64,000 nt of DNA from Dictyostelium discoideum (taxonomy: Eukaryota), in contig CM000153.2 of NCBI GenBank assembly GCA_000004695.1, positions 3,040,001 to 3,104,000 of the forward strand. Reading direction: 5' to 3'. The notes under the pieces are model-generated. The model saw only the letters and a program-made list of their open reading frames with translations, did not search any database and was not told the DNA's origin. The position numbers and the translations under genes are program-made. Shown here piece after piece: positions 1 through 61,143 of the stretch (positions are counted from its first letter, which is position 1; every line of letters begins with the position of its first letter).

Positions 1-2432
1 GATGTGAAGCTAAATTTGTTGGAGCAATTAAATCATTAAATGGGATTATAATGTTAGTTGGTACACCATTTTTTAGGGAGAAATTAAGTAGTTATAGTTT
101 TATGATGGGTGATAAATTATTACCGATTAGTGAAAATTTTGAAAATGATTTTCAATATGGAGAAGATGATAATGTGTTGATATCGATGGGAACTAATCAA
201 ACTTTTTTAAATTTAACGAGATATTCTGATAATGTTTTGAAAATTCAATTGGAGGGTGGAAAAATCAAAGAGTTTAAAATCGATACACAGAATAAAATGA
301 CATTGTCAATAGAAGCGTTGGGTGGTGATACAAAACCATATATTCAAATCGACTGTGAGAGTTGTATTGGAGCACGATTGAAAGGTTTGACTATGGATGT
401 TGCACCAATTGTAAATTCAACCATTTTTCATTTAGATTTTAGTGTTTTTACATTATATGGTTCGATATATCTTCAATCGGCAATAGCACCATTTGAAACT
501 TCAAATGTGGTTATAATCAATCCGATTATTAAAAGTCCTAAACAGGGTGAGGTTATAAAATTGAGTGTGAATAAAAATCAAAAGTATTCGACTTTGACTG
601 TATTTGCGTATTATTTACCACCACAATTTGATGGTGAAACGCTGTTCACTTGCCAATTCATTCTGTTTGATAATACAACCATTCAAGTTGACCAAGAGGA
701 TATATCGTCAACGAATACAGGTAGTTATTGGGAGTATAGTATTCAATCGACATTAACCTATGGTAGCGGCGAATTTCAAATCATTATAAATAATTTTCAA
801 GTTGTAAATGGTAGTTCAGTAATAACATTTAAAAAAACAAATAGTTTTCGTTATGAATTTGAAAACCCTATCGTAGAAACTATATCACAACCTATAAGAG
901 ACGGTGTTGGTATTGTAACTTTAACCGGCCAAAATCTTAATGGTTCTCCATTAATAACTATTGAAGGAGAAACTTCAATTAAATGTGGAAATGTTAAATT
1001 TAATGATGTTAATCAAATAACTTTTGAAATTACTCAAAGTCCTACCACAACCACTACCACCACCACCACCACTAAACCTGAAGATAAGTTTTATAATGTT
1101 ATAATTAATGTTGGTGGTACTAAAAGTGAACCATTCTTAATGAATTATTTACCAAGTGGTTGGAAATGTCCAAATAATTGTAGTGGTAATGGTTATTGTG
1201 ATGGTTCGTTAAATTGTATTTGCAATCAAGGATTTTCAGGTTACGATTGTTCAATATTAATTAATCAAGTATTAACCAACGCCAATTCATTACCAATATC
1301 AACAAATCAACAAATAAATGGTTCTTTCTCAATGACTGGTAATCATTTAAAGAATATTAGTTTTGAAATATCTTTAGCTGGTATCATAATTGATAGTGAT
1401 ACATTTAAACCATTACAAACTGATTTTAAAACTTTTTGTAAAGATTTTGATGATGGTTTTACATTGGATGCTAAAAATAGTAAATTATCAATTTCAACCA
1501 CTGCTCAATTCAATCCAAAAATATATAATTCAATTAATAGTATAAATTATAATGGAATTTATTTAGATAAACTTTCAAATAATTCAGTTTATTTAAAGGT
1601 TAATACGGCAAGCTCAACAATAACTACAATGAAATCATTAAAGGTTATTTATAAAGTGGATATAAAGGTTAATGGTAAAATACTCACGGATAATGATGAT
1701 GAATCAGTTACAACTGTAGTATCATCGCCAATTAATAATAAAATTTTAATTAAACATTTAGATTCAAATTCATGTTTACAAATTCATGTTTCAAATAGAT
1801 TTATGAATTATCAAAATATGGATGACGATTATGCTTCATTGGTTAAAATGGAATCAATACCAACAAGTGATATAAATAAACAAGATCAAAATAATCCAAT
1901 TTATTTAAGTATTAATATACCATTCGACGACGACGTTGTAGGTGGTGGTGGTGTTGATGGTGGTGATAATTCAAAATTTTCATTGGAGGTAGCTTCAACT
2001 TTTAGTGTTTTTAATGAATTTCCAACAAATATTAGAAATTCTCATCCAACTTTAAGTACAGCTGATAAATTCTTTATATCATTTGGTGTTGTAGTTGGTA
2101 TGGTTTTATTATTAGGTTTAATATTTAGATTTAGAAGATCAATTCGTTTCTATACTTTAAGATTCATAATCAATATTTATTTTCGTTATGGAAATCCTAG
2201 TGAAAAAATTCAAAACTTTTATGGTGGTTATGGTGTATTAAATGGTAAATTCGATTCATTAGAACTATTTTCAATGAATGGTGATGATGATGATATGGGA
2301 GCTCCAGATGGTGATGATGGTGTACCTGAGGAAGGTTACATTGTTAATCCATATGATGTTTATGATCCAACTCCAAGTGATTTCTTGGTTAATGAATTCA
2401 TAGAATCAAAAGCAACTTCCGAAATTGATTAA
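1..2432 (+). CDS. Type-I membrane glycoprotein, copy 1, with the 5' exons outside the window (reading frame begins at position 3). It has an IPT/TIG-like beta-sandwich repeat, an EGF-like module, a poly-Thr linker, a single TM helix and an acidic cytoplasmic tail. Possibly a Tgr-like adhesion/recognition family member.
   Basis: Continuous ORF to the stop at 2432. Motifs read directly: ...GIVTLTGQNLNGSPLITIEGETSIKCGNVKF (IPT/TIG-like); CPNNCSGNGYCDGSLNCICNQGFSGYDCS (EGF-like 6-Cys); TTTTTTTTTKPE linker; TM FISFGVVVGMVLLLGLIF; tail ...DFLVNEFIESKATSEID. The stretch upstream of the first Met aligns in-frame with exon 3 of the paralog at 3823. Confidence 0.7.
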   Translation, partial: CEAKFVGAIKSLNGIIMLVGTPFFREKLSSYSFMMGDKLLPISENFENDFQYGEDDNVLISMGTNQTFLNLTRYSDNVLKIQLEGGKIKEFKIDTQNKMTLSIEALGGDTKPYIQIDCESCIGARLKGLTMDVAPIVNSTIFHLDFSVFTLYGSIYLQSAIAPFETSNVVIINPIIKSPKQGEVIKLSVNKNQKYSTLTVFAYYLPPQFDGETLFTCQFILFDNTTIQVDQEDISSTNTGSYWEYSIQSTLTYGSGEFQIIINNFQVVNGSSVITFKKTNSFRYEFENPIVETISQPIRDGVGIVTLTGQNLNGSPLITIEGETSIKCGNVKFNDVNQITFEITQSPTTTTTTTTTTKPEDKFYNVIINVGGTKSEPFLMNYLPSGWKCPNNCSGNGYCDGSLNCICNQGFSGYDCSILINQVLTNANSLPISTNQQINGSFSMTGNHLKNISFEISLAGIIIDSDTFKPLQTDFKTFCKDFDDGFTLDAKNSKLSISTTAQFNPKIYNSINSINYNGIYLDKLSNNSVYLKVNTASSTITTMKSLKVIYKVDIKVNGKILTDNDDESVTTVVSSPINNKILIKHLDSNSCLQIHVSNRFMNYQNMDDDYASLVKMESIPTSDINKQDQNNPIYLSINIPFDDDVVGGGGVDGGDNSKFSLEVASTFSVFNEFPTNIRNSHPTLSTADKFFISFGVVVGMVLLLGLIFRFRRSIRFYTLRFIINIYFRYGNPSEKIQNFYGGYGVLNGKFDSLELFSMNGDDDDMGAPDGDDGVPEEGYIVNPYDVYDPTPSDFLVNEFIESKATSEID

Positions 2433-2623
2433 TTTTAGTTTTTAAAATTAAAAAAAAATAAAAAAAATAAAAATGAAAATAAAAAGATAAAACACAATAA
2501 ATCAGGTGTTGTAATTTTTAAAATATTTAATTTTATTTACATTTTGTTTTTTTTTTTTTTTTTTATTTTATACACAATCCCAAAAAAAAAAGTTACTTTC
2601 AAATAAATGAAATTGTTTTTTTC

Positions 2624-2661
<38 letters not shown>

Positions 2662-2777
2662 GTAAAACCGAATTATTTTTGGTTATAGCCATTTTTTTTT
2701 TTTTTTACTTTCAAATATTTCTGATTGTGAATGTATTATATGTAAAAATAACAAAAAAAAAAAAAAAAAAAAAAAAG

Positions 2778-5700
2778 ATGGAAAAAAACCATGTTTTCCA
2801 ATTAATATTTTATTCAATTTTAATTTTAATTGTAAATGTAAATTCAAATAAAATTGAATATTCATCATATAGTGAAGATGATAAATCAATAAATATAACA
2901 CTTATAACAAATATACAGGATTTGGAAATTTCATATTATTATAATCCTATTCAACATTTATCAATTATAAAATCAATTGAACCAATACCAATAATTAGAA
3001 ATAATATACCATTTAAATGTGGATATCTATTAGATAATAAAGGTTATCAAATTAATCTTATAAATTTAAAAGATGAGTATGTATATAACCTGACTACTAT
3101 TTCTTTTGTATAAATTATAATTTTTTAATTAATATTAATAAAAAAAAAATTAAAAAAAAATAGTTTTGGAACAAATGATTTTTATAATAATATAATTTGT
3201 AATGCTACATCTAATAAAATAACAGAGAATAGTATTCAATTAAAAGGAAATGATATAAATACAACATATGAATTCATATGCATAGATGATAATGATAATA
3301 TAAATAATAATGACAATATAGATAATATAGATAATTTAAATAATTATAAAAATAATAATAATAATAATAGTAGTAGTAATAATAATAGTAATCGTAATAA
3401 TAATAATATAGATAATATAGATAATATAGATAATTTAATTATAAATAGTAGTGACTATCATGGTGATAGTAATAATAGTAATAATAGTAATAATAATAAT
3501 AGTAATGAAATTGATAAATTTTTTTGTTTAAAAAATGATTTATCAAATCATACTCTTTGTACATATAATAGCAAATACGCATGTTTACAATCAATTATTT
3601 TTAATGTAACTAGAATAAAAAGAGGATTTTCTATAAATAAAAATTTTATTTCATCCAATCCATTAATTAAAAGATCGAATATAATTTCAATTAATGGTTT
3701 TTATAAATCAATATATCTAGGTTAGTTGGTTATAATTTTAATTTTAATTATATATAAATATAAATAATATAATAATTAAATAAATTTATTAATAATAATT
3801 ATAATAAAATATTTTATTATAGAAAGGAAAGAAAAAAAAATTGTTGGAGAAATTAAATCATTAAATGGTATTGTAACATTAAGTGGTATACCATTTTTTA
3901 GGGAAAAATTAAGTAATTATAGTTTTATAATGGGTGATAATATATTACCAATTAGTGAATATTTTGAAAATGATTTTCAATATAGAGAAGATGATAATGT
4001 ATTGATATCGATGGAGACCAATCAAACAATTTTAAATTTAACAAGATATTCTGATAATATTTTAAAAGTTCAATTAGAAGGTATAGAAATTAAAGAATTT
4101 GAAATCGATACACAAAATAAAATGATTTTATCAATTGAAGAATTGAATGACACTAAACAATACATTCAAATAAATTGTGAAGGTTGTATTGGTGCACAAT
4201 TGAGAGGTTTAACTATGGATATTGGACAAACTGTAAATTCAACGAGTTTTAAATTGTATTATGATACTTTTACACTATATAGTCCCTTATATCTTCAATC
4301 ACCAATTGCACCATTTGAAACTTCAAATCTAGTTATAGTTAAACCAATTTATGATTATCCAATAAAAGGTGAAGTTTTACAATTAAAATCAAAAAGATAT
4401 AAAAATCCAATAATCACTGTATCTGGTTATTATTTACCTTCAAATTATGGTTTCTTTTTGTTCACTCCTGAATTCTTAATTCCTGGAGGAGCAATTATTC
4501 GAAGCTATATCATAAAATCAACTAATATAGGTAGTTATTGGCAGCATAGTATTGAATTGCCAGTGAATCAAGGTAGTGGTGAATTTAGACTTTATAAAAA
4601 TAATTTCATAATCATTGATGGTAAAGTAAATATAATAAATAAAACAGTCGAGATTTTTCCTTTTAAGTTTGATGAAAAACCAATAGTAGAAAGTGTGTCA
4701 CAACTACAAGAGATGGTGCTGGTTATTTAACTATATCTGGTCAAAGCTTTAATTATTACCTTCCAGTTTTGACGATCGAGGAAGAAACCTCTTGGATTTG
4801 TGGAAATATATCTATTTTTCCTGACATTGATCAATTAATTTGTAAAGTTAATAAACATCCTATTCAGGATAGATTCTATAATGTTGTCCTTAAAAAAATT
4901 ATTAGTTATAGATCTTCATATAATAGTGAACCATTCCTAATGAATTATTTACCAAGTGGTTGGAAATGTCCAAATAATTGTAGTGGTAATGGTCATTGTG
5001 ATGGTTCATTAAATTGTATTTGCGATGAAGGATTTTCAGGTTACGATTGTTCAATACTAATTAATCAAGTATTAACCAATGCCAATTCACTACCAATATC
5101 AACAAATCAACAAAGGTTGGGTTCTTTCTCAATGACTGGTAATCATTTAAATAATATGAATTTTCAAATCTCTTTAGTTGGTATCATTACTGATAGTGAT
5201 ACTAATTTAGAAGCAGCTGAAACATCTTTTAAATATTCAACAAAAAATTCCAATTCAGTTTATTATAAAGATTCAGTTAATGGTTTTACATTGGATGCTA
5301 AAAATAGTAATTATTCAATTTCGGCCACTGCTCAATTCAATCCAAATGTATATTTAAATAATAGTATAAATTATAATGGAATTTATTTAGATAAACTTTC
5401 AAATAATTCTGTATATTTAAAGGTTAATCTTACAATAGGTGAATTAAACAATAAAGATATACTAAAGGTTATTTATAAAGTTAATTTAAATGTTAATAAT
5501 CAAATTCTTGGAGATTTAAAAAAATCAGTTACTATATCTTCACCAATTAATAATAAGATTTTAATTAAACATTTAGACTCATGTTCATGTTTACAAATTC
5601 ATCTTTCAAATAGATTTATAAATAATGGATCAATTAATGATGGTTATGCTTCATTGGTTAAAATGGAATCAATAACTGAACAAGATAATTCAATTTATTT

Positions 5701-6100
5701 TAGTATTGAAATTCCAATTAATAATAATAATATAAATTCAACATCAGGAGTTTCATTGGAAGTTACTTCAAGTTTTAGTGTTTTTAATGAAATTATAGTT
5801 TTTGAAATTTTAGGTACAGATGGTAATTCTTTAATAATTTTTGGTATTGTAGTTAGTTTGGTTCTATTATTTTATTTAATGTTTGGATTTAAAAGAAATT
5901 TAACCAATGGTATATTAAATGGTAAAACCAACTCATTTGAATTACTCCCAATGAATGGTGATGATTTAGGTGCTCCTGATGATGATTGTTTTCCTGAGAA
6001 AGGCTACATTTTTAATCCTAATGACATTAATGATTCAACTCTTAGTGATATCTTGGTTAATGAATTCATTGAGTCAAAAGCAACTTGTGAAACTGATTAA
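2778..6100 (+). CDS. Tandem paralog (copy 2) of the IPT/TIG-EGF membrane glycoprotein. Exons: 2778..3076, 3164..3720, 3823..6100. It has an N-terminal signal peptide and an Asn-rich insert. One base missing near 4700-4712 relative to copy 1 splits the last exon into ORFs 3930..4730 and 4769..6100, so it is a possible pseudogene or a sequencing error.
   Basis: ATG at 2778 followed by a hydrophobic leader (MEKNHVFQLIFYSILILIVNVNS). GTATGT donor at 3077 and AG acceptor at 3162-63; GT donor at 3721 and AG at 3821-22. Intron phases are consistent (299 nt phase 2; 557 nt phase 1). Exon 3 aligns with copy 1 from position ~1 onward. The EGF-like block is near-identical (CPNNCSGNGHCDGSLNCICDEGFSGYDCS), as are the TM helix and the tail ...DILVNEFIESKATCETD. 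Copy 1 'caacctataagagacggt' corresponds to copy 2 'caactacaagagatggt' (17 vs 18 nt). Confidence 0.6.
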
Positions 6101-6908
6101 TTTAATTAATAAAAAAAAATAAAAAAATAAAAAAAAAGCCATTGGAAAAAAAGAAATCAATTCATTTTTTCACTTTTTTAAAATTATCTATTCAAGTCTA
6201 ATTAAATAACAAGATAAAAGGGCAAAACAACCCAATAATATTTAAATAATAAATCAAAAAAAAATTTAATTATCTTTGATGATTCATCAAAGTGTTTTAA
6301 AAAATTAGATCAGCATCAATGGAAAAGGAACTAATAATTGCAATACAAATAAAAGAGTTTTTTTTTTTTTTTTTTTTATCATTTTTTTAGATGTGGGGTT
6401 TTATAGATTTTTAAAAAAAAAAAATAAAAAAAATAAAAAACAAACCAATTCAATAAAATCTATTTTTCCCTATTCATTTTTCTTCAAAATATAAAAGGAA
6501 TTACAAAAAATGAATGTTAAATAATTAAATTCTAAAAATAAAATTTTATATTAAAAAAATAAAAAAAAAAATAAATAAATTCAAAAAACAGAAATTACAA
6601 ATTAATTCATTTTTTTTATATTTTAAATCATTTTGTGTATTTACAAGTGTTCTATTTATCTAAACTAAATCCATATTAAAATAAATAAAACTAAATCATT
6701 GTAAAAAAAAAAAAATTTTAAAACTAAAAAAAAGGAAATATTTTAAAGGGGAGAAAAAAAAAAAAATTAAAAAAATTAAAAAAAATAAAAAAAACAAAAC
6801 CCTATTTAATCCTATTGAAAAGGTTTTTGATAGGGTGGTTTATTTTAGAAAAAAAAAAAAAAAATACAAACAAGGAAAATCTGTAAATTTTTATTTTAAT
6901 TTTTTAAT

Positions 6909-6963
<55 letters not shown>

Positions 6964-6971
6964 GTGAATAT

Positions 6972-7042
6972 AAAATATCCACTTTAATCCCAATTATTCA
7001 AATTGTGAAATTAAATATCCACTTTAATCCCAATTATTCAAA
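6972..7042 (+). promoter_or_regulatory. Perfect 31-bp direct repeat (aaatatccactttaatcccaattattcaaat, x2, 40-bp period) ending 27 bp upstream of the peroxiredoxin ATG. Candidate promoter element.
   Basis: Copies at 6972..7002 and 7012..7042 are identical. They sit immediately 5' of the CDS start at 7069 and 3' of a T(50) tract. Confidence 0.45.
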
Positions 7043-7068
7043 TATAAAAATAAATAATTAGAAAAAAA

Positions 7069-7362
7069 ATGACAAAATTAAAAGTTGATGACCAAGCTCC
7101 AGATTTTTCTGGAATTGACCAAAATGGTAAAAATATCTCATTGAGCCAATTTAATGGAAAACCATTAGTATTATTTTTCTATCCAAAAGGTAAAGTAATA
7201 ATTTAAAAAAAAAGAAAAAAACATATATATATATATTAATCTATATAAATTAATATTTTTAAAATTAAATGTATTAATATTTTATTATTGTTATTATAGA
7301 TGATAGTAAAACTTGTACAAATGAAGCATGTGAGTTTAGAGATAAGTATAGTTCATTTGTAA

Positions 7363-7418
<56 letters not shown>

Positions 7419-7766
7419 CATTAAATAATAAAATTAAATATTAATTAATTATTTTTATTTAAAATTAATTAGGTAAATGCTGGTGCTGATGTTATTGGTA
7501 TAAGTAATGATGATCCAGAATCTCATGCAAACTTCATTTCCAAGAATAGCCTTCCATACACTTTAATCTCTGATAAAGATGGTGAAATTGCTAAAAAGTA
7601 TGGTGTACATAAAGAATTATTATTCTTTCCAGGAAGAACCACCTTTATTTTAAATAAGGATCATAAAATTATTGGTACCCATTCAAGCTTAATTAATGCA
7701 TCATCTCATATTCAAGAATCACTTAAAGCAATTGACCACTTGAAAGGTGGTACACCAGTTCACTAA
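7069..7766 (+). CDS. Peroxiredoxin of the BCP/PrxQ (AhpC/TSA) family. Three exons: 7069..7189, 7300..7358, 7473..7766.
   Basis: Spliced protein [109 protein letters not shown]... Hallmark FYPKD..T..CT peroxidatic-Cys motif. GTAAAG/GTAAGT donors, AG acceptors, phases consistent (121 nt phase 1; 59 nt). Confidence 0.85.
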
Positions 7767-7825
7767 AAAAAAAACTAAAAAAAACAAAAATCCAAAAAAA
7801 ATTTTTTACCAAGAAAAACAAAATC

Positions 7826-7862
<37 letters not shown>

Positions 7863-7965
7863 ATCCAAAAACTCTAAATTAGAAAATAAATAAAATAAAT
7901 CATAGTTATTAAATCCATACAAATTTTACAATAAATAAAACCCATTTAAGTATTTTATAATTTTA

Positions 7966-8910
7966 TTAATTTTTCTTTGAAGAATTTGAAGATGAAGATA
8001 ATTTTCCTTTATCTCTTTTTTTCTTTATTACATTATCTTGTTCCACTATTTCATTTCTATCGTTTATCTAAAAATTAATAAATAAATAAATAAAAAAAAG
8101 AATTTATTAATAACCACCCCCACCCCAATTAAATTAATAAAATAAATAATAAAACCTAATAAAATAAATAATAAAACCTACAGAATTTAAATAAGTAGAA
8201 GAAGATGTTGAAAAAAGACGATCAGATTCTTTCCATCTTAATTTTTTTAAAGCGCCACTACCAGATATATAACTATCAAATCCTCTAATAACATTACCCA
8301 CATGATGAGTATCCTCTAAATATCTGCCCTCCAATGCATAAATTTGTTTCTCTAGTGTGGCTAATTTATTTTCTATATTCTTTTTCTCTGACATTAACTC
8401 TTCAATCTCCACTATAACCTCTTGTTTCATCCTTTTCTTTGGTAATATTGTTGCTATTGGTGTAACTACTGCTGCTGTTGTAGTTGTAGTTGTAGTTGTT
8501 GGTGTTGGGGTTGTTGTTGGTGTTGCATTCGCATTTGTAGATGATGATAATGATGATGATGATGATGATGTATCTGTATTACTATTTAATGTATTTGTAG
8601 TGGTTGTTGATGGTGATGGTGATGGTGATGGTGATGGTAATGTTGTTGTGGTAGTATTAGTTGTATTAGATGGTTGTGCATTTGTTGATGATGATGTTGA
8701 TACTGTGGTTGGTGTTGAATTTGTTTCATTTGTTGTTGTTACTATTTTCTTATCATTATTTTCTGTGGGGGTCAAAGATGGTATAGGTATATTACTACTT
8801 GATTTTTTATTTGATTTTTTATTTACACTTTTTTCATTGTCTTCTATAACATCCTCTCCATCAATTGTTTCCTCTTCTGTTTCCATTGTTACATCTTTAT
8901 TTTCACTCAT
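7966..8910 (-). CDS. MEAF6/Eaf6-like chromatin modification protein (NuA4/HBO1 HAT complex subunit) with a long Ser/Thr/Asn-rich N-terminal extension. Proposed 2 exons: 8910..8182 and 8067..7966.
   Basis: C-terminal core ...KKNIENKLATLEKQIYALEGRYLEDTHHVGNVIRGFDSYISGSG matches the Eaf6 coiled-coil/YLEDT..GN.I.GFD signature. The ORF as given runs into AT-rich junk (VGFIIYFIRFYYLFY). A phase-0 donor TCT|GTAGGT at 8181 and an AG acceptor at 8068 give a terminal exon ...INDRNEIVEQDNVIKKKRDKGKLSSSSNSSKKN* (33 codons, in frame, stop at 7966-68). Confidence 0.6.
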
Positions 8911-9570
8911 TTTTTTTTTTTTTTTAATTTTCCTTTTTTAATTAAAACACTAAAAAAATTTGAAGAAATTTGAAAAATTTTTAAAAAAAAAAAAAAAAAA
9001 AATAATTTCCAAAGTGGCGCAAAAATAACAAAGCATAATTAAAATGTAATGTTTAATAAAATTTAAATAGAAAAAAAAATATCTATTCCTTTTTTCTTAA
9101 ATTTACATTTTATTATTGAATTGATTTAAAAAAAAAATAATAATAATAATAAAAAAAATAAAAAAAAATATTTAAATTATTTTTTTTTTTTTTTTTTTTT
9201 TTGAGAATTACTAAAAAAATAATAAGCAAATAATAAATAAATAAAAAAGTATTAAAATAATATAGGAAAAATTGATTTCTTTTTTTCCATTTATGTTTTT
9301 TTTCCATTTATGTTTTTTTTTTTTTTTTTTTTTTTTTTCAATTTATTTTATTTTTTTTTTATTTTTATTTTTTTTAATTTTAATTATTTTTTAATTTTTT
9401 TTAAATTTTTTCTGATTTATTATATATATATATATAATCAAACTAATAAATAAATAAAAAAGTAAAGATTTGTAAGTATTGTTTTATGTTTTTTTGTTTT
9501 TTTTTATTTTTTTTTTTATATTTTTTTTATTTTTTAATATCACATTATGTGTTAATATAGTGAATCAAAA

Positions 9571-9639
9571 AACGAGCCAACGTTAAAATTTTTTTTTTTT
9601 TTTTCAATTTTTTGAAAAATTTTTCACGAAGGGCTCGTT
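9571..9639. promoter_or_regulatory. GC-containing inverted repeat (aacgagcc ... ggctcgtt) flanking a T-rich 53-bp spacer, about 170-230 bp upstream of rpl17 in the shared rpl17/MEAF6 intergenic region.
   Basis: Arms 9571..9578 (aacgagcc) and 9632..9639 (ggctcgtt) are exact reverse complements. This is an isolated G+C island in an otherwise >90% AT intergenic stretch. Confidence 0.3.
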
Positions 9640-9804
9640 GAAATCTTTTTTTTTTTTGATTTTTTTTATTTTTTTTTTAGTGTGTGTATTGAAAATGTAT
9701 GTAACTGATATCATGAATCCGTTTTTCTCAATCTATGACAAAAGATTGAACAATTATTTTTTTTGTATTAATACTAACTTTATCTATCTCAATCTTTAGT
9801 AAAA

Positions 9805-10587
9805 ATGACAAAACCAGTTTATTCAAAGACCCCATCCAACCCAGAAAAATGTAAGCATATAATAATATTTACCCTTTTAACATATCATCTAAAACAAAGA
9901 CTAACCTCTCTCTATTTTTTTTTTAGCCTGCAAATCTCGTGGTTCTAACTTAAGAATTCACTTCAAGGTAAATAGATTATATTATAGCAATTTAGGATAT
10001 GATATAAGAATATAAATGATAAACGATAAATGATATTGGATAGAGGAAAAAGAGAAAAAAGAGGATAATGATAATTGATAGAAAAAGTAGATTATTAATT
10101 TTTGATATAAATTATTGTAATAAAATAATAGAACACCAGAGAATCAGCTATGGCCATCAAAGGTATGCTCTTAACCAGAGCTAAAGCTTACTTAAACAAC
10201 GTTTTAGCCCATAGAGAATGTATCCCATTCAGAAGATTCAAAGGTGGTGTAGGTCGTACTGGTCAAGCCAAAATTTTCGGTACCAGTCAAGGTAGATGGC
10301 CAAAGAAATCTGTTGAACACATTTTATCACTCCTCCAAAATGCTGAAGCCAACGCTGAAGCTAAGGGTTTAAATGTTGAAAAACTCAAGATCGCTCACGT
10401 TCAAGTTCAACGTGCTCAACAACAACGTAGAAGAACCTACAGAGCACATGGTCGTATCAATCCATACATGTGTTCACCATCAACTGTTGAATTCATCCTC
10501 ACTGAAGTTGAAAAAGCTGTCCCAAAACCAGCTGAAGAATCCGCCCAAAAGAAGAAATCTGTCGCCACCCAAGAAATCTCTGCTTAA
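9805..10587 (+). CDS. rpl17: 60S ribosomal protein L17 (uL22). Three exons: 9805..9850, 9927..9967, 10132..10587.
   Basis: Spliced protein [145 protein letters not shown]... Collinear with eukaryotic RPL17. GTAAGC/GTAAAT donors, AG acceptors, phases consistent (46 nt phase 1; 41 nt). Confidence 0.9.
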
Positions 10588-10724
10588 ATAAAAAAATATA
10601 ATTATTAAAAAAAATAATAATCTTTTAAAAAAAAAAAAAATACATATATATTTATATTTTATTTATTATTTTTTTTTTTTAAAAAGTCTAAATTTATTTA
10701 TTTATTTAATTTTTTATTTGTTTT

Positions 10725-11108
10725 TTACTCTTCACCATCACTATCATTTTCGCCATCAAAATTTCTTAAATCGATTTCATTGGCTCTATCAGGTTGTTGG
10801 TCAATTATATTTAAAATTTTAATCAATTCATTTAAATGGTTTGGACTTGCTTTTGAAATTATAATATTACAAATTGAACCACCAACTAATTTTAATTCAA
10901 TTGTACATTTTCCATCATCTATAAAATTACTATAAATTCTTGATAAAGATTCTTCAAGTTTGAAATGAACCATTTTAGTTCCTTTACCAATACCTAAACA
11001 AATTTGTGATTGTCCATTTCTAAATAATGTAATTCCTTTAGTTGCAGGTCTAGGTTGTTTTCTTTGTTGATTTAAATAATCCACCACTGTATTACATTCT
11101 ATATGCAT
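10725..11108 (-). CDS. Small hypothetical protein (127 aa) with an acidic C-terminus (...DGENDSDGEE). No confident family assignment.
   Basis: Clean ORF on the minus strand with ordinary amino-acid composition, flanked by AT-rich non-coding sequence. No introns detected. Confidence 0.4.
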   Translation of the reverse strand: MHIECNTVVDYLNQQRKQPRPATKGITLFRNGQSQICLGIGKGTKMVHFKLEESLSRIYSNFIDDGKCTIELKLVGGSICNIIISKASPNHLNELIKILNIIDQQPDRANEIDLRNFDGENDSDGEE

Positions 11109-11318
11109 TTTTTTTAAATTTTATTTTTTAGGACCAAGTTATCTGTGAAGTTTTATTTTTGATCAAAAAAAAAAAAATAAAAAAAAAAATAAAAAAAAAA
11201 ATACAAAAATAAAAAAAAAATAAAAATAACAAAAATAAAAATGAAAAAAAAAGGGTGTAAAATTTATGGTTTTCTAAAAATACAATTCTAAATGTTTTTC
11301 TGTTTTCTTTTCTTTTTT

Positions 11319-11355
<37 letters not shown>

Positions 11356-11377
11356 TAAAATTAATTGTAATAATACC

Positions 11378-12946
11378 CTAAAGTGTATATTCTTCACCTT
11401 CACTCTCTGAATTTTCATTACTATTATTAATATTATTATTATGGGTATTATTATTTGATCCAAATTTATTTAAATTTCTATTACTACCACTATTATTACT
11501 ACTTCCATTACTGCTAATACTAAAAAAAAAAAAATTTGGAAATGTTGAAAAAAAAAATCTTAAAAATGAACTTGAGGATTTTGAATTTGATAGTTTTGGA
11601 ACACCATGTCTCCATTCATCTTGATTATTACTATTTGGTGAGCCAAATTTGGATTTATCAGGACTTTTACTTAAATTATAATCAATTGATGAGTTTAAAT
11701 TTGATTGGTGCCTATTATTATTATTATTATTATCTATATTATTATTATTATAATTATTATTATTTTGTTTATCAAATGAAGAATTTAAAGAAGGTTTAAA
11801 ATTATTTTCAAAACTATTTAAAACATTAATTGAAGAATCTGGATTTGGTAAAGTTGAAATTGCTTTCCAATTACCATCATTATATACAAGTTCCCATTGA
11901 GCTCTTTGAGCTTTTAGGGTAAGACTATTTTCAATTAGTTGAACGATTGCATTTTGAATTTCAGATAACCATTGTGAACGTACTTGTTGGCTTTCACAAA
12001 CGAAATAATGAGTTTTAATGGGTGAAACTAAAAAAAAAGAAGTTGTATCTTCAGAGTTGAAAATTGTCATTGCAGTTACTAATGGAATGATTTTATCAAC
12101 TTTACTAATAGTAGTACCAGATAGTGGTGTGATTGAACTAATTGTAATTAGGATATCATTACAAAGGTAAACCATTCTATTTTGAATGGAATTATCACGT
12201 AATGATTTCTTTTGTAGTTTGCCCTCTTTAATGAGTTTTCTGTGCGCTTCCACTAGATTTGGGTAAGTTAATGGTCCTAAATATTTTGCATGTGTATCGA
12301 ATATATTCTGTAATGCTATTAGTTTCTTTCGATTTTGGTCCTCACTTATACCGTCATTTACAACCTGTGCTATATTTTTCAATTGAGTTGCTGCCAATGA
12401 GCATTGATGATAATCTTTATGTGTGGGTTTGGTGGCTGTATATAATGCTTCCAATAATAGTATATATCGTGGTACCCTTTGAATTGGTGCTATCAATAGT
12501 GAGGGTAGATCCAATGATTTACAACGTATATCTTTTTCACGTGCTTTTAACCATAGATTAAATTGTGGTGTATTGGTTCTAAGATTCTTTAATGTTTCAA
12601 TTGAGTTACTATAATTTTCTGAATATTGTTTATAACATTTAAAAAATGGACTTAAACTAACAAATATATCTCCCATACCTTGTTCGGGTGACCATTGTTT
12701 TAATCTTGGATCAATCTTTTCAAATAATATATTACTTAATCCATAGATATTCTCTATATGTGAAAATATTGAATGAATATCACTCTCTTTAATAGTCCAT
12801 TGAAATCCTTCTACTGATTCTTGTTTACAAATTAACATCATTGGTTTTAAAAATAATTCAATAATTGTATTTAATTGTTCATTATAATATTTTTCTGTTG
12901 ACCAAATTTCTTTTGAAATTTCTCTTCTTTTAATTTCCAGTTTAAC
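11378..12946 (-). CDS. Rho guanine-nucleotide exchange factor (DH domain followed by a PH-like region) with an Asn/Ser-rich C-terminus. The 5' exon(s) are not resolved.
   Basis: DH signature ...DIRCKSLDLPSLLIAPIQRVPRYILLLEALYTAT... The frame stays open upstream of the annotated Met as ...KLEIKRREISKEIWSTEKYYNEQLNTIIELFLKPMM (start of the DH domain) up to an AG acceptor near 12946, so at least one more upstream exon exists. Confidence 0.7.
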   Translation of the reverse strand, partial: VKLEIKRREISKEIWSTEKYYNEQLNTIIELFLKPMMLICKQESVEGFQWTIKESDIHSIFSHIENIYGLSNILFEKIDPRLKQWSPEQGMGDIFVSLSPFFKCYKQYSENYSNSIETLKNLRTNTPQFNLWLKAREKDIRCKSLDLPSLLIAPIQRVPRYILLLEALYTATKPTHKDYHQCSLAATQLKNIAQVVNDGISEDQNRKKLIALQNIFDTHAKYLGPLTYPNLVEAHRKLIKEGKLQKKSLRDNSIQNRMVYLCNDILITISSITPLSGTTISKVDKIIPLVTAMTIFNSEDTTSFFLVSPIKTHYFVCESQQVRSQWLSEIQNAIVQLIENSLTLKAQRAQWELVYNDGNWKAISTLPNPDSSINVLNSFENNFKPSLNSSFDKQNNNNYNNNNIDNNNNNNRHQSNLNSSIDYNLSKSPDKSKFGSPNSNNQDEWRHGVPKLSNSKSSSSFLRFFFSTFPNFFFFSISSNGSSNNSGSNRNLNKFGSNNNTHNNNINNSNENSESEGEEYTL

Positions 12947-16667: not shown

Positions 16668-17090
16668 AAAATATATTTTTGGTACCAAAAACTATCACTC
16701 TTGCGAAATTTAAGTTATAAAAAGAAAAAAAAAATAATAAAAAAATTTAAGTTAATAAAAAAAAATATAATAAGAATAATGCATAATCATTTTAATTTAC
16801 GTGTCCTGTTTTGATGGATTTTTTTTTTTTTTTGAGTTAAAGGTATTACTTTATTTATTTATTCAATTTTTATAATTATTAAATTATTAATTATAAAATT
16901 TGTTTAAAAATAAATGTATAAAATAATAAATAATTTTAATAATGGAAAAGTATTTATAATAAATTGGGTGTTTGCAATAATTATTTGAACTTTTTAGTAT
17001 TGTATGTTGTCTGTTGTTGTTTGTTTGTTTGTTTTTTGAAACTCAAGGTTATAACATCCGAAGTTCGGATTTTTATGAAAAATCCAAAAG

Positions 17091-17162
17091 CTCCCTGTCC
17101 GGGAATTGAACCCGGGCCTTTCGCGTGACAGGCGAAAATCCTCACCACTAGACCAACAAGGA
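17091..17162 (-). tRNA. tRNA-Asp (anticodon GUC), 72 nt.
   Basis: The reverse complement is TCCTTGTTGGTCTAGTGGTGAGGATTTTCGCCTGTCACGCGAAAGGCCCGGGTTCAATTCCCGGACAGGGAG. It has a 7-bp acceptor stem, anticodon loop CUGUCAC, a B box GGTTCAATTCC, and is identical to the plus-strand copy at 33029..33100. Confidence 0.92.
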
Positions 17163-22766: not shown

Positions 22767-23831
22767 TTAAAATAACCAATACAAATTAATGATGAAAATA
22801 ATACTTACAGGTAACCTAGTTGATTTTTCGATATAAATTGATCTTTCTTCATTTTCATCATCATTATATTGATGATTAATCATTAATTGATGATTTGGTA
22901 CCATTGACCAAGCTTCACCTAGAGCGGCTTTATTATCAAAACTATTACCACCAACTGTATTATTTGTAATTAGAAATATGATTTGATAAGTGTCTGCTAT
23001 ATATTTAATTAATCTTGAAATCATCATCATTGTATAATGACCTTGAGTTTGTTTACCACCAATTATTGGTGCTAATAATGTACCAATTGAATCTATAACA
23101 ACCATTTTTAAACCTTTATAAAATTGATTTTCAAATGTTGGTATTTCATCTGAAATTATACTCAATGTACTATCGATTGTACTTAATAATTCTAATAATG
23201 TTATTGAATCAAAACAATTGAATACTTTAATTCTATCTAAAATTTTTAAAATTTTATCTTGTTCAATTTTATCATTATTTTCTTGTTGCTTTTGATGTTG
23301 TTTTTGTTGTTGTTTTTGTTGTTGTTTTTGTCGTTGTTTTATTAAATAATTTGATTTAAAAATTTCAATTAATCTTGGTGGTGAAAATGAATTTGAACTA
23401 TCAATATAAATTATATTTGAATTATATTGTTGTGATAAATTTAAAGAACAACACATTGAAATTTGAGTTTTACCACATGATGTATTACCAACCAATTCAT
23501 AGATTTCACCACTTGTAAAACCATTACCACCTAATAATTGATCTAATAATTTAATACCACTTGAATAATGTGTTTTAAATTCTTTAACATCTAAATAATG
23601 TTGGTATCCATTTATTGGTACTGATGAAAATAATCTTTGTAAATTTCTTTGTATTAAAGTAACAGTTTCAATTGGTATAGATGTATTCCTTTGAATTTGA
23701 TATGCATCTGAAAATAATATTAAATCAATCATTGGATATCCATTATTTTCAAATTTAATTACATTATCTTCGCTTAAACATTGTGTTTGATAAAATCTAA
23801 CTTCTAGTCCTGATATACTTTCTTCTTCCAT
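22767..23831 (-). CDS. RAD51 paralog (RecA-like ATPase; XRCC2/XRCC3/RAD51D-type). The C-terminal end is not resolved: a GTAAGT donor at about 22802 predicts a short terminal exon.
   Basis: LLGGNGFTSGEIYELVGNTSCGKTQISMCCSLNL (Walker A GxxxxGKT plus the RecA-like context), Walker B-like ...MVVIDSIG, and ...ALGEAWSMVPNHQLMI typical of Rad51 paralogs. A Gln/Lys repeat insertion (QKQQQKQQQKQHQKQQ) is present. The ORF tail VSIIFIINLYWLF is intronic. Confidence 0.65.
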   Translation of the reverse strand: MEEESISGLEVRFYQTQCLSEDNVIKFENNGYPMIDLILFSDAYQIQRNTSIPIETVTLIQRNLQRLFSSVPINGYQHYLDVKEFKTHYSSGIKLLDQLLGGNGFTSGEIYELVGNTSCGKTQISMCCSLNLSQQYNSNIIYIDSSNSFSPPRLIEIFKSNYLIKQRQKQQQKQQQKQHQKQQENNDKIEQDKILKILDRIKVFNCFDSITLLELLSTIDSTLSIISDEIPTFENQFYKGLKMVVIDSIGTLLAPIIGGKQTQGHYTMMMISRLIKYIADTYQIIFLITNNTVGGNSFDNKAALGEAWSMVPNHQLMINHQYNDDENEERSIYIEKSTRLPVSIIFIINLYWLF

Positions 23832-30353: not shown

Positions 30354-30435
30354 CTAATTGGAAATATAATTATTATCATGTAAATCAGCAGTATTACTAT
30401 TATTGTTGATATCTTCGTTATTATTATTATTATTA

Positions 30436-30491
<56 letters not shown>

Positions 30492-31988
30492 TGAATTAAT
30501 TAAATCTATTGTGGTATTGGGATTATTTAAATTATCCAATTCCTGAAATTCAGTATTGGTTTCTTTTTGAATAGTTTTATTATTATTATTATTTTTAATT
30601 TTAATTTTTGAAATAATTAATTTAAAAATTTTTGACCAATCATCACGAAGTAATTGATATAGAATTATTGAAGAGAAAGTTGCACAACCAATACCATCGA
30701 TTTTTAAATTACCCCATTGAACTACAACATCAATCATACCAGTACCTAAAACAATTGCAATACCAGCTGATAAAAGATTTCTTGGTTTTGAAAAATCAAC
30801 TTGTGCTTCTACCCAAAGTTTAGCACCTGTAATACCAGTGATACCAAATAAAACAATTGATAACCCACCAAAAATACCTGGTGGAATAGTTTGGATTATT
30901 GCTCCGAAAATTGGTAAACATCCTAAAATTATTGCAATAAATGCTGCAATTAAAAATGAAAGTGTTGAAAATATTTTTGTAATACTCATTACACCAATAT
31001 TTTCGGCATATGTTGTTGTACCTATACTTCCACACGAGCCAGCTAAAATACATGCAATTGAGTCACCTAAAAATGTTCTACCAATCATATAATCTAAATT
31101 CTTACCAGTCATTGTACTAACTGCTTTTAAGTGACCAATGTTTTCAGCGGCAAGAATGATTGCAATTGGTGCAATTAATGAAATATAAGTTGATTCGAAA
31201 ACTGGTGCAGTAATTGGTGGTGAGCCAATCCATCTTGAATTACCAACGCCACTAAAATCAATACCTGGTCCGATTTCACCTAACCCAAATAAGAAATATA
31301 ATAGGTATGATGATAATCCTCCAATTAAAATTGGCAATCGTTTAAATGGGCCGGGCGCATAGCATGTTACCATACAAACACATAATACCGTTACCAATGC
31401 CATCCAGGCTTCAAATGCGCTAGTTGCCACTTGATGGATTGCCGATGTTGATAAATGGAACCCAATTGCAACTACCACCGAACCCGTTACCACTGGTGGT
31501 GTTAATACCTCAATCCATTTGGTACCAACGAATATTACAATCAATGAAATGCCTAAATAAACCAAACCACATGACAATATTCCACCTGACGCTTGTGCGA
31601 TATTCGGGTTACTAGAATTGCTACCTGCAATATAAACGAAACCAGTCGCTGAATTTACGACACCAATAAAGGCAAAGGACGACCCTAAATAAGAGGGAAC
31701 TTTACCTCCCGTACATATAAAAAATATAACAGTACCAACACCAGAGAATAGCAATGCAGTGTTTGGTGAGAATCCCATTAATAATGGACCCACAACTGTA
31801 CTTCCAAACATTGCCAACACATGTTGAAATGCTAATAAAATCGTAGGGCCCCATGGAATTCTTTCATCTGGTAATACCCCATTACTATAATCTTGTTTTA
31901 ATTCATAATTTGGAAAATAATTTTTTATACCATTTATAATAATTTTTAAACCATTTTTAATATCTTTTTTATTTCTATTAATAAACAT
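30354..31988 (-). CDS. Nucleobase:cation symporter-2 (NCS2; uracil/xanthine permease) family transporter with a poly-Asn C-terminal tail.
   Basis: Multi-TM ORF with ...LAFQHVLAMFGSTVVGPLLMGF... and ...IGTTTYAENIGVMSITKIFS... The NCS2 signature regions are collinear with UraA/PbuX-type permeases. Confidence 0.8.
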
Positions 31989-33028: not shown

Positions 33029-33100
33029 TCCTTGTTGGTCTAGTGGTGAGGATTTTCGCCTGTCACGCGAAAGGCCCGGGTTCAATTCCCGGACAGGGAG
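33029..33100 (+). tRNA. tRNA-Asp (anticodon GUC), 72 nt. Second copy, identical to the minus-strand gene at 17091..17162.
   Basis: TCCTTGTTGGTCTAGTGGTGAGGATTTTCGCCTGTCACGCGAAAGGCCCGGGTTCAATTCCCGGACAGGGAG. The 3' flank shares cttttg...CCGAACTTCG with the other copy. Confidence 0.92.
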
Positions 33101-33213
33101 CTTTTGCTATTTTTTCAAAAACCCGAACTTCGAAAATTTGTAGTTTTTAATTTTTAAAAAAATCTGGACTGAAAATTTTTTAAAAAGGAATACTTATTTA
33201 TAAATTTTAAAAT

Positions 33214-35848
33214 TGACCGAGATTAAGGATAGAAAAGGATGAATTACTTTTCACGTGTATCTTGTATCCTCTTGGTCGCGGTACGGTTTTTTTTTTATAT
33301 TCTATATATATTATCAGACACCTGTCAAAAAAGAAAGGAAAGGAATCATTGAGAGCTTCATAGAGAGTATCTACCCTTCACCATCCAAACCGCAGCTATA
33401 CGACTCCCAAGAGGAGATCGATATCATCTCATAATGGTAGTAATCAAAATCAACCAATGGAATGTCAGAGGTTGGGGCACTGACACCTCCTTCAAAAACA
33501 AAACAGACTTTATCAAATCCCAATCCCCCCCAAACTCATTGGCACTAACCATAGTCAATGAACTCAATGCTGACGCAACACAAGCACACCAGCTATTTCC
33601 TGGCTCCATCATTAGTGCAACCAACAGAGGCAACGGAATAGGAATACTAAACAACAACAACCAAAACATAAAACTCTCACCAATATTCATAATAGAAGGT
33701 AGACTAATAATATCAGACATTCTAATAAAAGATACCACAACGAGAATCTTGGCCATATACGCCCCGGCCCAACTTGATAAAAGAAAAATACTAGCTTCAA
33801 CACTTAACAAACACTTCAACAACCAATACCACAACCTAACGTCTAACCCTAAAAAAAACATCGACATCATAGCAGGTGACTTCAATTGTTTAGACTTCAA
33901 TGACAATCACACATCAAATGACGACCAAGGCAACTTGACAACACAATCCCCAGATGAGATGGCCACAGTAATTGAAGCCATCAGAATTTCAAATAACCTA
34001 ATGGATATGGACCAACTAAATAAAAGACCCACCTTCTCAAGAACGATACACAACACAAACAATAACCTCACAAGAATCTTGGAAAGGAGACTAGACAGAA
34101 TATACCTTAACAATAGCATAATCAACTACAGCCAATTATACTTAAGGAACCTAATCCCCCCAAAAATTAATGACATACCTCTATCAGATCACAACTTCCT
34201 ATCAACCACCTTCACTCTACCCAACATACAGATGAACAAGCGCAGATGGAGATTAAAAAAATCCTCAATCCTCTCAAGCATAATGCTTAAGAAAATAGAC
34301 TTCCTACTTAACGATTATTCAAGAGAGCTGTCATCCAACCATAACTCTATTTCCTTCTCTCAACTCAACAGCTTACTAAACAAAATAAAACAACTATACA
34401 CAGAATTTCTAAAACAAAATGACTACAACAATAAGGCAAACATCAAAAATCTAATCTTCCTACTAGAGACAGAATTTAAAGACCAAGCCTTCGCAACCCT
34501 TTCAGCAATAAATGAATCTAAAAAAAGAGAAGAACAACTTAAACAAGAATTGAACAACTATTGCGAAGAAACCTCACTCAAGTACATCTCCGCGAGAATC
34601 AAGAAAAGACACAATGATTTCACCATCAACGCAGTAAAAGATGCACAAGGTAGAACAATCAACAAACAGGAATTGATCGAAGAAGAATACGTAAAGTATT
34701 ACTCAAATCTTTATGACTACAAAGAAGATGACCCACCATCTCATTATGAAATGTTGGAAAATTGGACAGTGACCAGGGACTCAACATGGGACAACCTTGA
34801 AAATGAATTCACAACACAAGAGATCCTAGAAGTAATAAAACAATTGAACCCACACAAATCTCCAGGCCCAGGTGGAATTCCAAACTTATTCTACATAACA
34901 CACAAAGAAAAACTAGCTCCAATACTGGCCTCAGCATTCAACGACACTCTAAGAAATCCTCATCTAATTAGCAAAAATTACAAAGAAGGCCTCATTATCA
35001 CGATACCTAAAAAGGGAGACCCCGAACTAATCAAAAACAGAAGACCAATTACACTGGCTAACTGTATATATAAAATCCACTCAAAACTAATAAACAATAG
35101 AATAATCCCTATACTAACGAAAGTGATCAACCACAATCAAAAAGGTTTCGTACCAGGCAGATTCATTCTAGATAATATCATATCAATGAACGAATTAATC
35201 AACTACTGTAATGATAAAAGAATTAACGGAATAATTACACTATATGATTTCGAAAAAGCTTTTGACTCGATCTCACACGGTTCAATACTCAGATCACTAC
35301 AACACATATACATTCCAACCAATATAATCAACCTGATAATGAATCTACTCACCAAATCTGAAGCAAGAATTGAAATTAATGGTAGAACTACTATACCCTT
35401 TGAGATCAAAAGAGGAGTCAAACAAGGAGATCCACTATCACCCACCCTGTTCGTCCTTGTAATAGAGGCTTTAGCTAGAAAAATTTTACAAGATGACCGA
35501 ATTACTGGCCTTCCTCTAAACAACAGCAACCACAGAGAGAAATTCCAAAGCTTTGCAGACGACTCGGCTTCAATGGTCCCAGACTCTCAATAACTTGAAT
35601 TAGTACTACAACACTTCAATTCATTTTGCAAAGCCACTTCCTCAAAACTAAACATCGACAAATCTTCATCAATTCTTATAGGCAACCCAGACAATACCAA
35701 CCAAAGAATTCCAATATCTACAAATCCAGAAAGATACTTGGGATACTTCTTCACAGGCAAAGGGATAACAAGAAAAATGCCAGAAATATTAAACACAATA
35801 AGATCATCCTTAGTACTATGGAAAACCACTGACTCAACAATCAAAACC
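33214..35848 (+). mobile_element. Non-LTR (LINE-like) retrotransposon copy A, TRE3-type (tRNA-gene-targeted, 3' side). It begins about 114 bp downstream of tRNA-Asp. It has a ~220-bp 5' leader, an ORF with an APE-type endonuclease and reverse transcriptase (33434..35593), no ORF1, an in-frame TAA at 35591-93, and is interrupted by the assembly gap.
   Basis: ORF MVVIKINQWNVRGWG... (APE N-motif) ... RT motifs ...GIITLYDFEKAFDSISH...FADDSASM... The position relative to the tRNA gene matches the known TRE3 integration preference in Dictyostelium (established knowledge). Antisense and alternate-frame small ORFs in the track are by-products. Confidence 0.75.
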
Positions 35849-42072: not shown

Positions 42073-42931
42073 TTAAAAAGGAATTGATTTACTTTCACTA
42101 ATTAATTCACAAGTATCAGATAATATTGGATCATTTAAAGTTTTTGGAATTGATTCCACTTTAAGTGATTGAGAGAAAGTTCCAATTTCTTTTGGTTTGA
42201 AAATGATTGGGACTTTGGTTGTAGTCTTTGGATTTAATGTTATGGTATGATGATTCAATATGAATGGTGATGGTGATGGTAAACTTAATCTAACATTTAA
42301 AGTTGCATTTGAGGCATTTGATATTGATACTTTGTTTGTTGAAGATTGTCCAATTTGAACAATACCAAATGTTATTTTATTATCATAAAAGAATAAAATT
42401 CCATTTGTATGTTGTTTGGGTTGTTGTTGTTGTGGTGGTTGTTGTTGTTGTTGTTGTTGCTTTCTTTGTTGTTGTGGTGGTGGTTGTTGGTCAGGTTCAA
42501 ATTGATGAATATGGTAATGTCTAACTTCTTCACTCTTTTTTATACCATCTGTAGTTGTAGTAACAGTTGGGTTAAATCTTAATGTATTTTCAAATGTATT
42601 GAATAAATTATTTTCATTATTATTATTATTATTATTTGTATTGTTATAAACTGAAGGTTGAGGTTTTTTTAAAATTGATTTTAAGTTTGTATTATTCGAA
42701 GCTGATGTTGTAGGAGGAATGTTGGTGGTTGCTGCATTAAATGAAGTGGTGTTTGCATTTAAAACCGAATTTGTTGGAAATGGTAAATTGATTGTCGCTT
42801 TAAATGGTGTATTGTTTAAATCCATTTCTGAAAGTTCAAATTCTCTTCCATTAATTGGTGTTGCTGTTGTTGTTGTTGTTGTTGTTGATGTAGTTGTTTT
42901 TTTAGTAGATGGTGGTAAATTACTAAAAATA

Positions 42932-43017
<86 letters not shown>

Positions 43018-59237: not shown

Positions 59238-61004
<1,767 letters not shown>

Positions 61005-61143
61005 TGTTTGAAAAAAAAAAAAAAAAATGAAAAAAATAAAAAAAAAAATGAAACAAAAAAAAAAAAAAATGAAAAACAAAAAAAAAAAAAAAAAAAAAAC
61101 CTGGATAAATTTTTGGAAGTAATTATTTAAAATGTTTTAATTT

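Follow-up and report, generated by a model that had tools for sequence, protein, structure and literature searches.

An intact gene for a putative surface protein and its decaying tandem duplicate on chromosome 4 of Dictyostelium discoideum

Two genes of Dictyostelium discoideum AX4, DDB_G0285297 (copy 1) and DDB_G0285271 (copy 2), lie in tandem, head to tail, on the + strand at positions 1–6100 of a 64,000-nt stretch of chromosome 4 (GenBank CM000153.2, positions 3,040,001 to 3,104,000 of the forward strand; this whole stretch is referred to as the window, and its numbering is used below). We consider it very probable that the pair is a case of ordinary gene birth-and-death within the D. discoideum clade, in which an intact surface-protein gene stands beside a decaying tandem duplicate. 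The two genes would have arisen by tandem duplication and would encode a single-pass type-I surface glycoprotein confined to this clade, and gene conversion between the copies would have occurred before the sampled lineages split. Copy 1 would be the working gene, kept by ordinary purifying selection. Copy 2 would have been frameshifted in the AX4/AX2 lineage and disabled independently, by other lesions, in two more lineages.

The locus is already known as sequence, and both genes are annotated in AX4, each as 'hypothetical protein'; the possibility raised in a sequence-only reading of this DNA, that the locus was undescribed, does not survive to that extent. The product of copy 1 (XP_638303, Q54NG6) is a protein of 1065 aa that is 100% identical to the window over the 809 aa present there, while the product of copy 2 corresponds to XP_638304 and Q54NG5. 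Both UniProt entries carry the UniRef name 'Reelin', and a literature search on the identifiers DDB_G0285297 and DDB_G0285271 found no mention of either gene. The two genes are separated by a gap of 345 nt in AT-rich DNA (GC content of 18–34% along the window), and their products share ~56% amino acid identity (tblastn). Reading frames and tblastn agree with the same-orientation arrangement on the + strand that the sequence-only reading had proposed; its spacing of about 3.9 kb is replaced by a measured offset of 3.67–3.83 kb. No third copy was found in the 64-kb window by tblastn with either protein, only the pair itself being matched. The features of both genes are collected in Table 1.

In AX4, copy 2 carries a 1-nt deletion at which the sequence reads CAA-CTACAAGAG, where copy 1 has CAACCTATAAGAG and the isolate ACTFIR has CAAGCTACAAGAG. 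Apart from this deletion, copy 2 is open across 1044 codons. The same deletion is present in a second assembly, GCA_054883475.1 (L002), which has no mismatches to the window over 11 kb. Based on its locus tags, the strain descriptions and the identity to AX4, we take this sequence to be the AX2-214 genome, for which Nanopore and Illumina reads were combined in a de novo assembly (Holland et al., bioRxiv 10.1101/2025.08.01.668227). Because the deletion recurs in this independent assembly, it is a property of the NC4-derived laboratory lineage and not a Sanger sequencing error. The earlier observation that one copy is frameshifted is thereby confirmed in two independent assemblies, and the error that might have explained it away is ruled out.

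Further lesions were found outside the laboratory lineage. ACTFIR is a divergent isolate labelled D. discoideum (GCA_054859385.1, L001), and we infer the strain attributions of the assemblies used here; tropical isolates of this kind have been described as genetically diverged and as retaining the ability to mate with AX2 (Holland et al., bioRxiv 10.1101/2025.08.01.668227). In ACTFIR the same tandem pair is flanked by a CAF1 gene and a peroxiredoxin gene, and copy 1 is intact (1055 aa, 94–95% identical to AX4). Copy 2 of this isolate has a G at the site of the AX4 deletion, with the frame intact there, and is interrupted by three stops, in the signal peptide (QLIF*TIL), in the ectodomain (NSN*VYY) and just after the transmembrane (TM) helix (KRN*TNG), as well as by a 1-nt frameshift in exon 2. 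The ACTFIR annotation (P0003) masks these lesions by means of introns and truncations. In D. cf. discoideum (ACTFIZ) only the part of copy 2 that lies 3' of the EGF module was found, beside the peroxiredoxin gene and at a contig end, and this remnant has a frameshift in the tail. The contig concerned (JBTAPI010000007.1 of GCA_054859235.1; L003 1–1600) ends 538 nt upstream of the remnant, inside the gene pair, and its end marks either the breakpoint of a chromosomal rearrangement or a break in the assembly. Since the three lineages have three different sets of disabling lesions, copy 2 reads as a pseudogene, one that appears to be decaying independently in each of them.

The rates of synonymous (dS) and nonsynonymous (dN) substitution were estimated by the method of Nei and Gojobori for AX4 against ACTFIR, i.e., from one pairwise comparison, and groups were contrasted by the Fisher test. 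Copy 1 (802 codons) gave a dS of 0.115 and a dN of 0.021 (dN/dS 0.18), close to the four flanking genes (935 codons; dS 0.072, dN 0.015, dN/dS 0.20), whereas copy 2 (752 codons) gave a dS of 0.078 and a dN of 0.037 (dN/dS 0.48). The ratio of nonsynonymous to synonymous changes is higher in copy 2 than in copy 1 (p = 0.0015) or in the flanks (p = 0.005), with no difference between copy 1 and the flanks (p = 1). In no domain of copy 1 did nonsynonymous differences per site (pN) exceed synonymous ones (pS); its least constrained part is the domain following the EGF module (pN/pS ~0.44), and its TM helix and tail are nearly invariant, with one nonsynonymous change. The housekeeping neighbours (flanks 6458–12705) have a dS of about 0.07–0.09 between the isolates, which is large for one species name, and the 6% difference between the copy 1 proteins is general divergence of the ACTFIR lineage. 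Copy 1 is intact and under ordinary purifying selection, not hypervariable in this comparison, and copy 2 is under relaxed constraint. The birth-and-death cluster with one decaying copy that the sequence-only reading had offered as one option is thus borne out by the different lesions in three lineages together with the raised dN/dS of copy 2. Its other option, a rapidly diverging locus like those of the Tgr family, is not supported by the dN/dS of copy 1, and the elevated nonsynonymous polymorphism expected under it does not appear between these two isolates.

The similarity between the two copies is unevenly distributed. Their nucleotide distance ranges along the gene from 7% to 40%, with the same pattern in AX4 and in ACTFIR. 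The EGF block and the residues just downstream are near-identical, SEPFLMNYLPSGWKCPNNCSGNG[Y/H]CDGSLNCIC..GFSGYDCSILINQVLTNANSLPISTNQQ, and both proteins have the C-terminus LVNEFIESKAT[S/C]E[I/T]D, but only about half of the residues in the TM helices are identical; the near-identity previously claimed for EGF block, TM helix and tail therefore holds for the first and for the C-terminus and not for the helix. The highest divergence between the paralogs (30–40% of nucleotides) falls in the pair of IPT-like domains that precede the EGF module (copy 1, window 523–1113) and not, as had been supposed, between the IPT-like and TM regions, where the stretch from EGF module to TM helix is a mosaic of 7–34% nucleotide divergence. 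The dS between the paralogs is ~0.10 in the EGF block, 0.15–0.25 in a few other blocks and 0.4–0.9 elsewhere (once >2). In the EGF block the near-identity extends to silent sites and so points to past gene conversion rather than to constraint at the protein level alone, and low-dS blocks of this kind suggest that such conversion took place between the copies. In the EGF block (window 1114–1400 vs 4910–5200), the distance between the paralogs is 0.074 and that between the copy 2 orthologues of AX4 and ACTFIR is 0.080, but the copy 1 orthologues differ by only 0.022; these values fit an old gene conversion after which copy 2 decayed faster. Any conversion would predate the AX4–ACTFIR split, because the mosaic pattern is common to both isolates and because the distance between the paralogs is at least as large as that between the copy 1 orthologues in every 150-nt window. 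The latter result also led us to reject recent, lineage-specific gene conversion. Beside the membrane, at about 2143–2225, copy 1 has a 26-aa in-frame insertion (SIRFYTLRFIINIYFRYGNPSEKIQNFYGGY), which is kept in copy 1 of ACTFIR and occurs neither in copy 2 nor in the D. cf. discoideum remnant.

Both genes share one predicted architecture: a signal peptide, an N-terminal region of ~400 aa, two tandem IPT/TIG-like domains, an EGF-like module, a beta-rich domain, a TM helix and an acidic tail. The mature copy 1 protein has 16 N-glycosylation sequons, 19 ectodomain cysteines and one strong TM segment, and its tail contains 19 acidic residues. The architecture given by the sequence-only reading (IPT/TIG-like domains, EGF, TM helix, tail) was right, but the full-length proteins yield no TIG match against Pfam and only sub-threshold EGF matches. 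When the domains were isolated, that of ACTFIR copy 2 scored 28.6 bits (E value 1.5e-6; profile positions 1–78 of 84) against Pfam TIG (PF01833), for which the gathering score is 20.9 bits, so that the TIG assignment holds by this profile; the copy 1 domain with its poly-Thr loop removed scored 20.3 bits, and the AX4 copy 2 domain with its frameshift repaired 15.5 bits. The family profile also matches the solved IPT/TIG protein BACOVA_02650 (PDB: 5E7G; E value 5e-6) over ~160 positions that cover two successive domains. An AlphaFold2 model of window 486–1268 has a predicted local distance difference test score (pLDDT) of 70.8, the input alignment having contained TIG repeats of ComC-like proteins. 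On the PF01833 score and a predicted seven-stranded E-set Ig-like beta-sandwich, the tandem domains can be assigned to the IPT/TIG class. The six-cysteine pattern of an EGF-like module is readable in both copies, and the family profile matches the EGF module of a reelin repeat in PDB 7LYU (E value 2.3e-7); with single sequences, Pfam EGF_TEN gave 22.7 bits (cut-off 65; E value 8e-5) and EGF_2 17 bits (cut-off 22.1; E value 0.008). Cysteine spacing and profile match together identify the module as EGF-like by sequence. The ~256-aa domain that follows has no Pfam match at E≤10, and the N-terminal region of ~400 aa has no family match in Pfam. An uncharacterised D. discoideum surface protein thus gains a defined architecture, with two IPT/TIG domains, one EGF module and one unassigned membrane-proximal domain.

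To find the nearest relatives of the pair, we searched 1.84 billion representative proteins exhaustively with an HMMER profile. Similarity continued outside the TIG and EGF modules only in the pair's own cluster, the ACTFIZ remnant and DICPUDRAFT_76336 of D. purpureum (P0008; 591 aa, 'EGF-like domain-containing protein'), and the remaining matches were confined to the EGF module or the TIG–EGF unit. Ten of the latter kind that were looked up are metagenomic, sponge or other amoebozoan EGF proteins, and none is a Tgr protein. Three word-indexed homology searches returned only the pair's own clusters, even without the low-complexity runs; they gave no orthologue from the lineages of D. citrinum, D. 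firmibasis or D. intermedium, a result that does not imply absence there. DICPUDRAFT_76336 resembles the pair in having IPT1, IPT2, EGF module, post-EGF domain and TM helix (E value 4.7e-14), and it alone outside the discoideum clade aligns from IPT1 through the TM helix; the post-EGF domain was found only in the pair, in P0006 and in this protein. It differs in lacking the N-terminal region of ~450 aa and the NEFIESKAT tail, and its identity is ~25–30%. Its locus shows no synteny with that of the window, so that orthology is unproven. Downstream of it, at a distance of 8 kb, is a 443-aa gene that has TIG and ComC_SSD domains (GL870984.1; L004 19404–20803), which hints at clustering of such genes for TIG–EGF surface proteins. 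The similarity to reelin covers ~75 residues only, i.e., the EGF module and a few preceding residues, and the pair has neither a reelin domain nor BNR repeats. The UniRef name, which derives from the EGF module alone, is an automatic-naming artefact.

By analogy with dictyostelid TIG–EGF membrane proteins, copy 1 is most likely a cell-surface adhesion or ligand-binding receptor, with an ectodomain that would bind a partner and an invariant tail that would connect to the machinery of sorting or signalling. Among such proteins the closest in design are ComC-like, namely KAF2072711 of Polysphondylium violaceum (P0015) and a metagenomic protein (P0042), which carry Pfam TIG, EGF_2 and ComC_SSD (PF22933). 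Like the pair, they have the type-I topology, a six-cysteine EGF module placed immediately after an IPT/TIG domain, the two being alignable residue by residue, a large beta-rich domain before the TM helix and a short tail. The IPT2–EGF unit of the pair aligns position by position to every TIG–EGF unit of P0015 and P0042, the order of domains is the same, and a TIG and ComC_SSD gene neighbours the D. purpureum relative. On these grounds the pair could be divergent members of the ComC family, with copy 1 acting like ComC in cell–cell communication during development. We regard this as the least improbable of the alternatives to a clade-specific family, and doubtful all the same. The pair has one TIG–EGF unit instead of three to five, a unique N-terminal region of ~400 aa and a unique conserved C-terminus, and the whole-protein HMMER matches reach E values of only 1e-10 to 3e-4 and do not extend outside the TIG–EGF module. 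Neither copy 1 nor DICPUDRAFT_76336 has a match to ComC_SSD at E≤10 in its post-EGF domain, and hhalign of the post-EGF alignment against the ComC_SSD alignment returned a probability of 0.1%; at the sequence level, this domain is therefore ruled out as ComC_SSD. With respect to the Sib family, Pfam scans of the pair gave no VWA match, and the tail contains no canonical NPxY, the motif NPYDVY being present in copy 1 only and not conserved in copy 2.

Several points weigh against an intact gene beside a dead duplicate. The dN/dS of copy 2 is 0.48 and not about 1, from which it follows that the loss of constraint is either recent or incomplete. In AX4 the lesion affects one nucleotide, and a copy 2 allele that is intact may exist in wild D. 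discoideum. The polymorphism test covered two to three lineages, and the function proposed for copy 1 is deduced from domain composition. The full-length AlphaFold2 model, built on an alignment of six sequences, has a mean pLDDT of 35 and is unusable, which leaves the N-terminal 400 aa and the post-EGF domain without a structural assignment. Finally, a 68-nt GT..AG stretch in copy 2 (4626–4693) has a plausible intron length, and its splicing would restore the frame.

This last point, along with the otherwise open frames of AX4 copy 2, supports the view that copy 2 is functional and that its frameshift is a sequencing error or is bypassed by splicing or by ribosomal frameshifting. Both public annotations treat copy 2 as protein-coding. 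The AX4 model (P0005; ...KPIVE|NGAGY...) needs a 20-nt GT..AG pseudo-intron at 4693–4712, whereas the AX2 model (P0002; ...IIDGK|CVTTTRDG...) uses the 68-nt segment; both excise coding stretches conserved in copy 1. An 'intron' of 20 nt is far shorter than the genuine introns of copy 2 (87 and 102 nt). In the 68-nt segment the AT content is 76.5%, compared with 88–95% in those introns, and the segment is conserved in copy 1 and in ACTFIR and covers the IPT1–IPT2 junction, which splicing would delete. Together with the recurrence of the deletion in two independent assemblies, the stops, frameshifts or truncation of the orthologous copies in two other lineages and the raised dN/dS, this makes a functional copy 2 unlikely. 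We therefore propose that DDB_G0285271 be recorded as a pseudogene, for which the AX4 and AX2 models have each invented a different intron; the correction of these two public gene models is the concrete outcome of the analysis.

There is likewise only a slight chance that copy 1 is an unrecognised adhesion or recognition receptor of the discoideum clade outside tgr, comC and sib, with a new membrane-proximal domain and tail motif, and that the state of copy 2 varies among wild isolates. If copy 2 were intact in some strains and broken in others, strains with two and with one of the diverged ectodomains would constitute a presence/absence recognition polymorphism. The lack of excess amino acid divergence in the comparison of two lineages argues against the locus as a kin-recognition candidate outside tgrB1/C1.

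The Tgr proteins themselves (tiger, formerly lag; tgrA–T, including tgrB1/tgrC1) are, like those of the pair, transmembrane proteins with extracellular IPT/TIG Ig-like domains, encoded by clustered paralogs with pseudogenes; 26 of the 64 tgr loci in AX4 are pseudogenes, and the tgrB1/C1 pair is transcribed in opposite directions from one common promoter (Holland et al., bioRxiv 10.1101/2025.08.01.668227). A Tgr-like polymorphic locus for kin recognition or allorecognition, with selected ectodomains and a matched receptor–ligand pair, would agree with the tandem arrangement, the type-I membrane proteins with IPT/TIG domains, the maximum of paralog difference in the Ig-fold domains and the restriction of the family to one lineage, with its nearest D. 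purpureum relative so distant. It is largely refuted, and in our estimate very improbable, since copy 1 diverges no faster than its neighbours, one partner is a pseudogene in three of the three lineages examined, the genes lie head to tail on the + strand instead of diverging from a shared promoter, and neither the exhaustive search (no link to tgr beyond the TIG module) nor the gene names used by our sources place the pair with tgr. The proteins also differ from Tgr in having an EGF module and only two IPT-like domains. The pair shows no full-length Tgr similarity in the HMMER search, and it is set apart from this family by profile search and gene names, not by direct alignment. What the pair offers under ordinary birth-and-death is modest in its stakes, a small and clean case of duplication, partial homogenisation and independent decay in Dictyostelium.

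Table 1. Features of the gene pair, in window coordinates
Feature	Position	Strand	Remarks
Copy 1, DDB_G0285297, 3' part	3..2432	+	809 codons and stop (2430–2432); 5' end cut by window start
Copy 1 IPT-like Ig-fold domain 1	501..860	+	
Copy 1 IPT/TIG domain 2	861..1148	+	poly-Thr run inserted in one loop
Copy 1 EGF-like module	1161..1253	+	pattern C-x3-C-x5-C-x5-C-x-C-x8-C
Copy 1 membrane-proximal beta-rich domain, ~256 aa	1254..2021	+	without family match
Copy 1 TM helix, FFISFGVVVGMVLLLGLIF	2070..2126	+	top Kyte-Doolittle window of the protein
Copy 1 acidic cytoplasmic tail, 101 aa, and stop codon	2127..2432	+	ends LVNEFIESKATSEID
Copy 2 exon 1, includes signal peptide	2778..3076	+	ATG at 2778; splice model matches annotated N-termini in both assemblies
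Copy 2 intron 1	3077–3163	+	87 nt, 88% AT, GT..AG
Copy 2 exon 2, Asn-rich low-complexity insert	3164..3720	+	splice model matches annotated proteins
Copy 2 intron 2	3721–3822	+	102 nt, 95% AT, GT..AG
Copy 2 exon 3 (IPT1, IPT2, EGF, post-EGF domain, TM, tail)	3823..6100	+	frameshift inside
Copy 2 1-nt deletion	between 4703 and 4704	+	resulting stop at 4728–4730
Copy 2 EGF module	4961–5053	+	within exon 3
Copy 2 TM helix	about 5831–5884	+	within exon 3

Elsewhere in the window there are two tRNA-Asp(GTC) genes, at 33029–33101 (+) and 17090–17162 (-). A long open reading frame (ORF) with a reverse-transcriptase domain (33434–35593, +) begins ~330 nt downstream of the first of these, and a second reverse-transcriptase ORF is located at 51022–52989 (+); both probably belong to tRNA-gene-targeted (TRE-type) non-LTR (long terminal repeat) retrotransposons. 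Four long ORFs on the - strand have clear Pfam matches to Cep192/ASH Ig-like domains (42073–44745), a xanthine/uracil permease (30354–31988), a Rad51-like ATPase (22767–23831) and the N-terminal domain of a Sen54-like tRNA-splicing endonuclease subunit (59238–61079), respectively.

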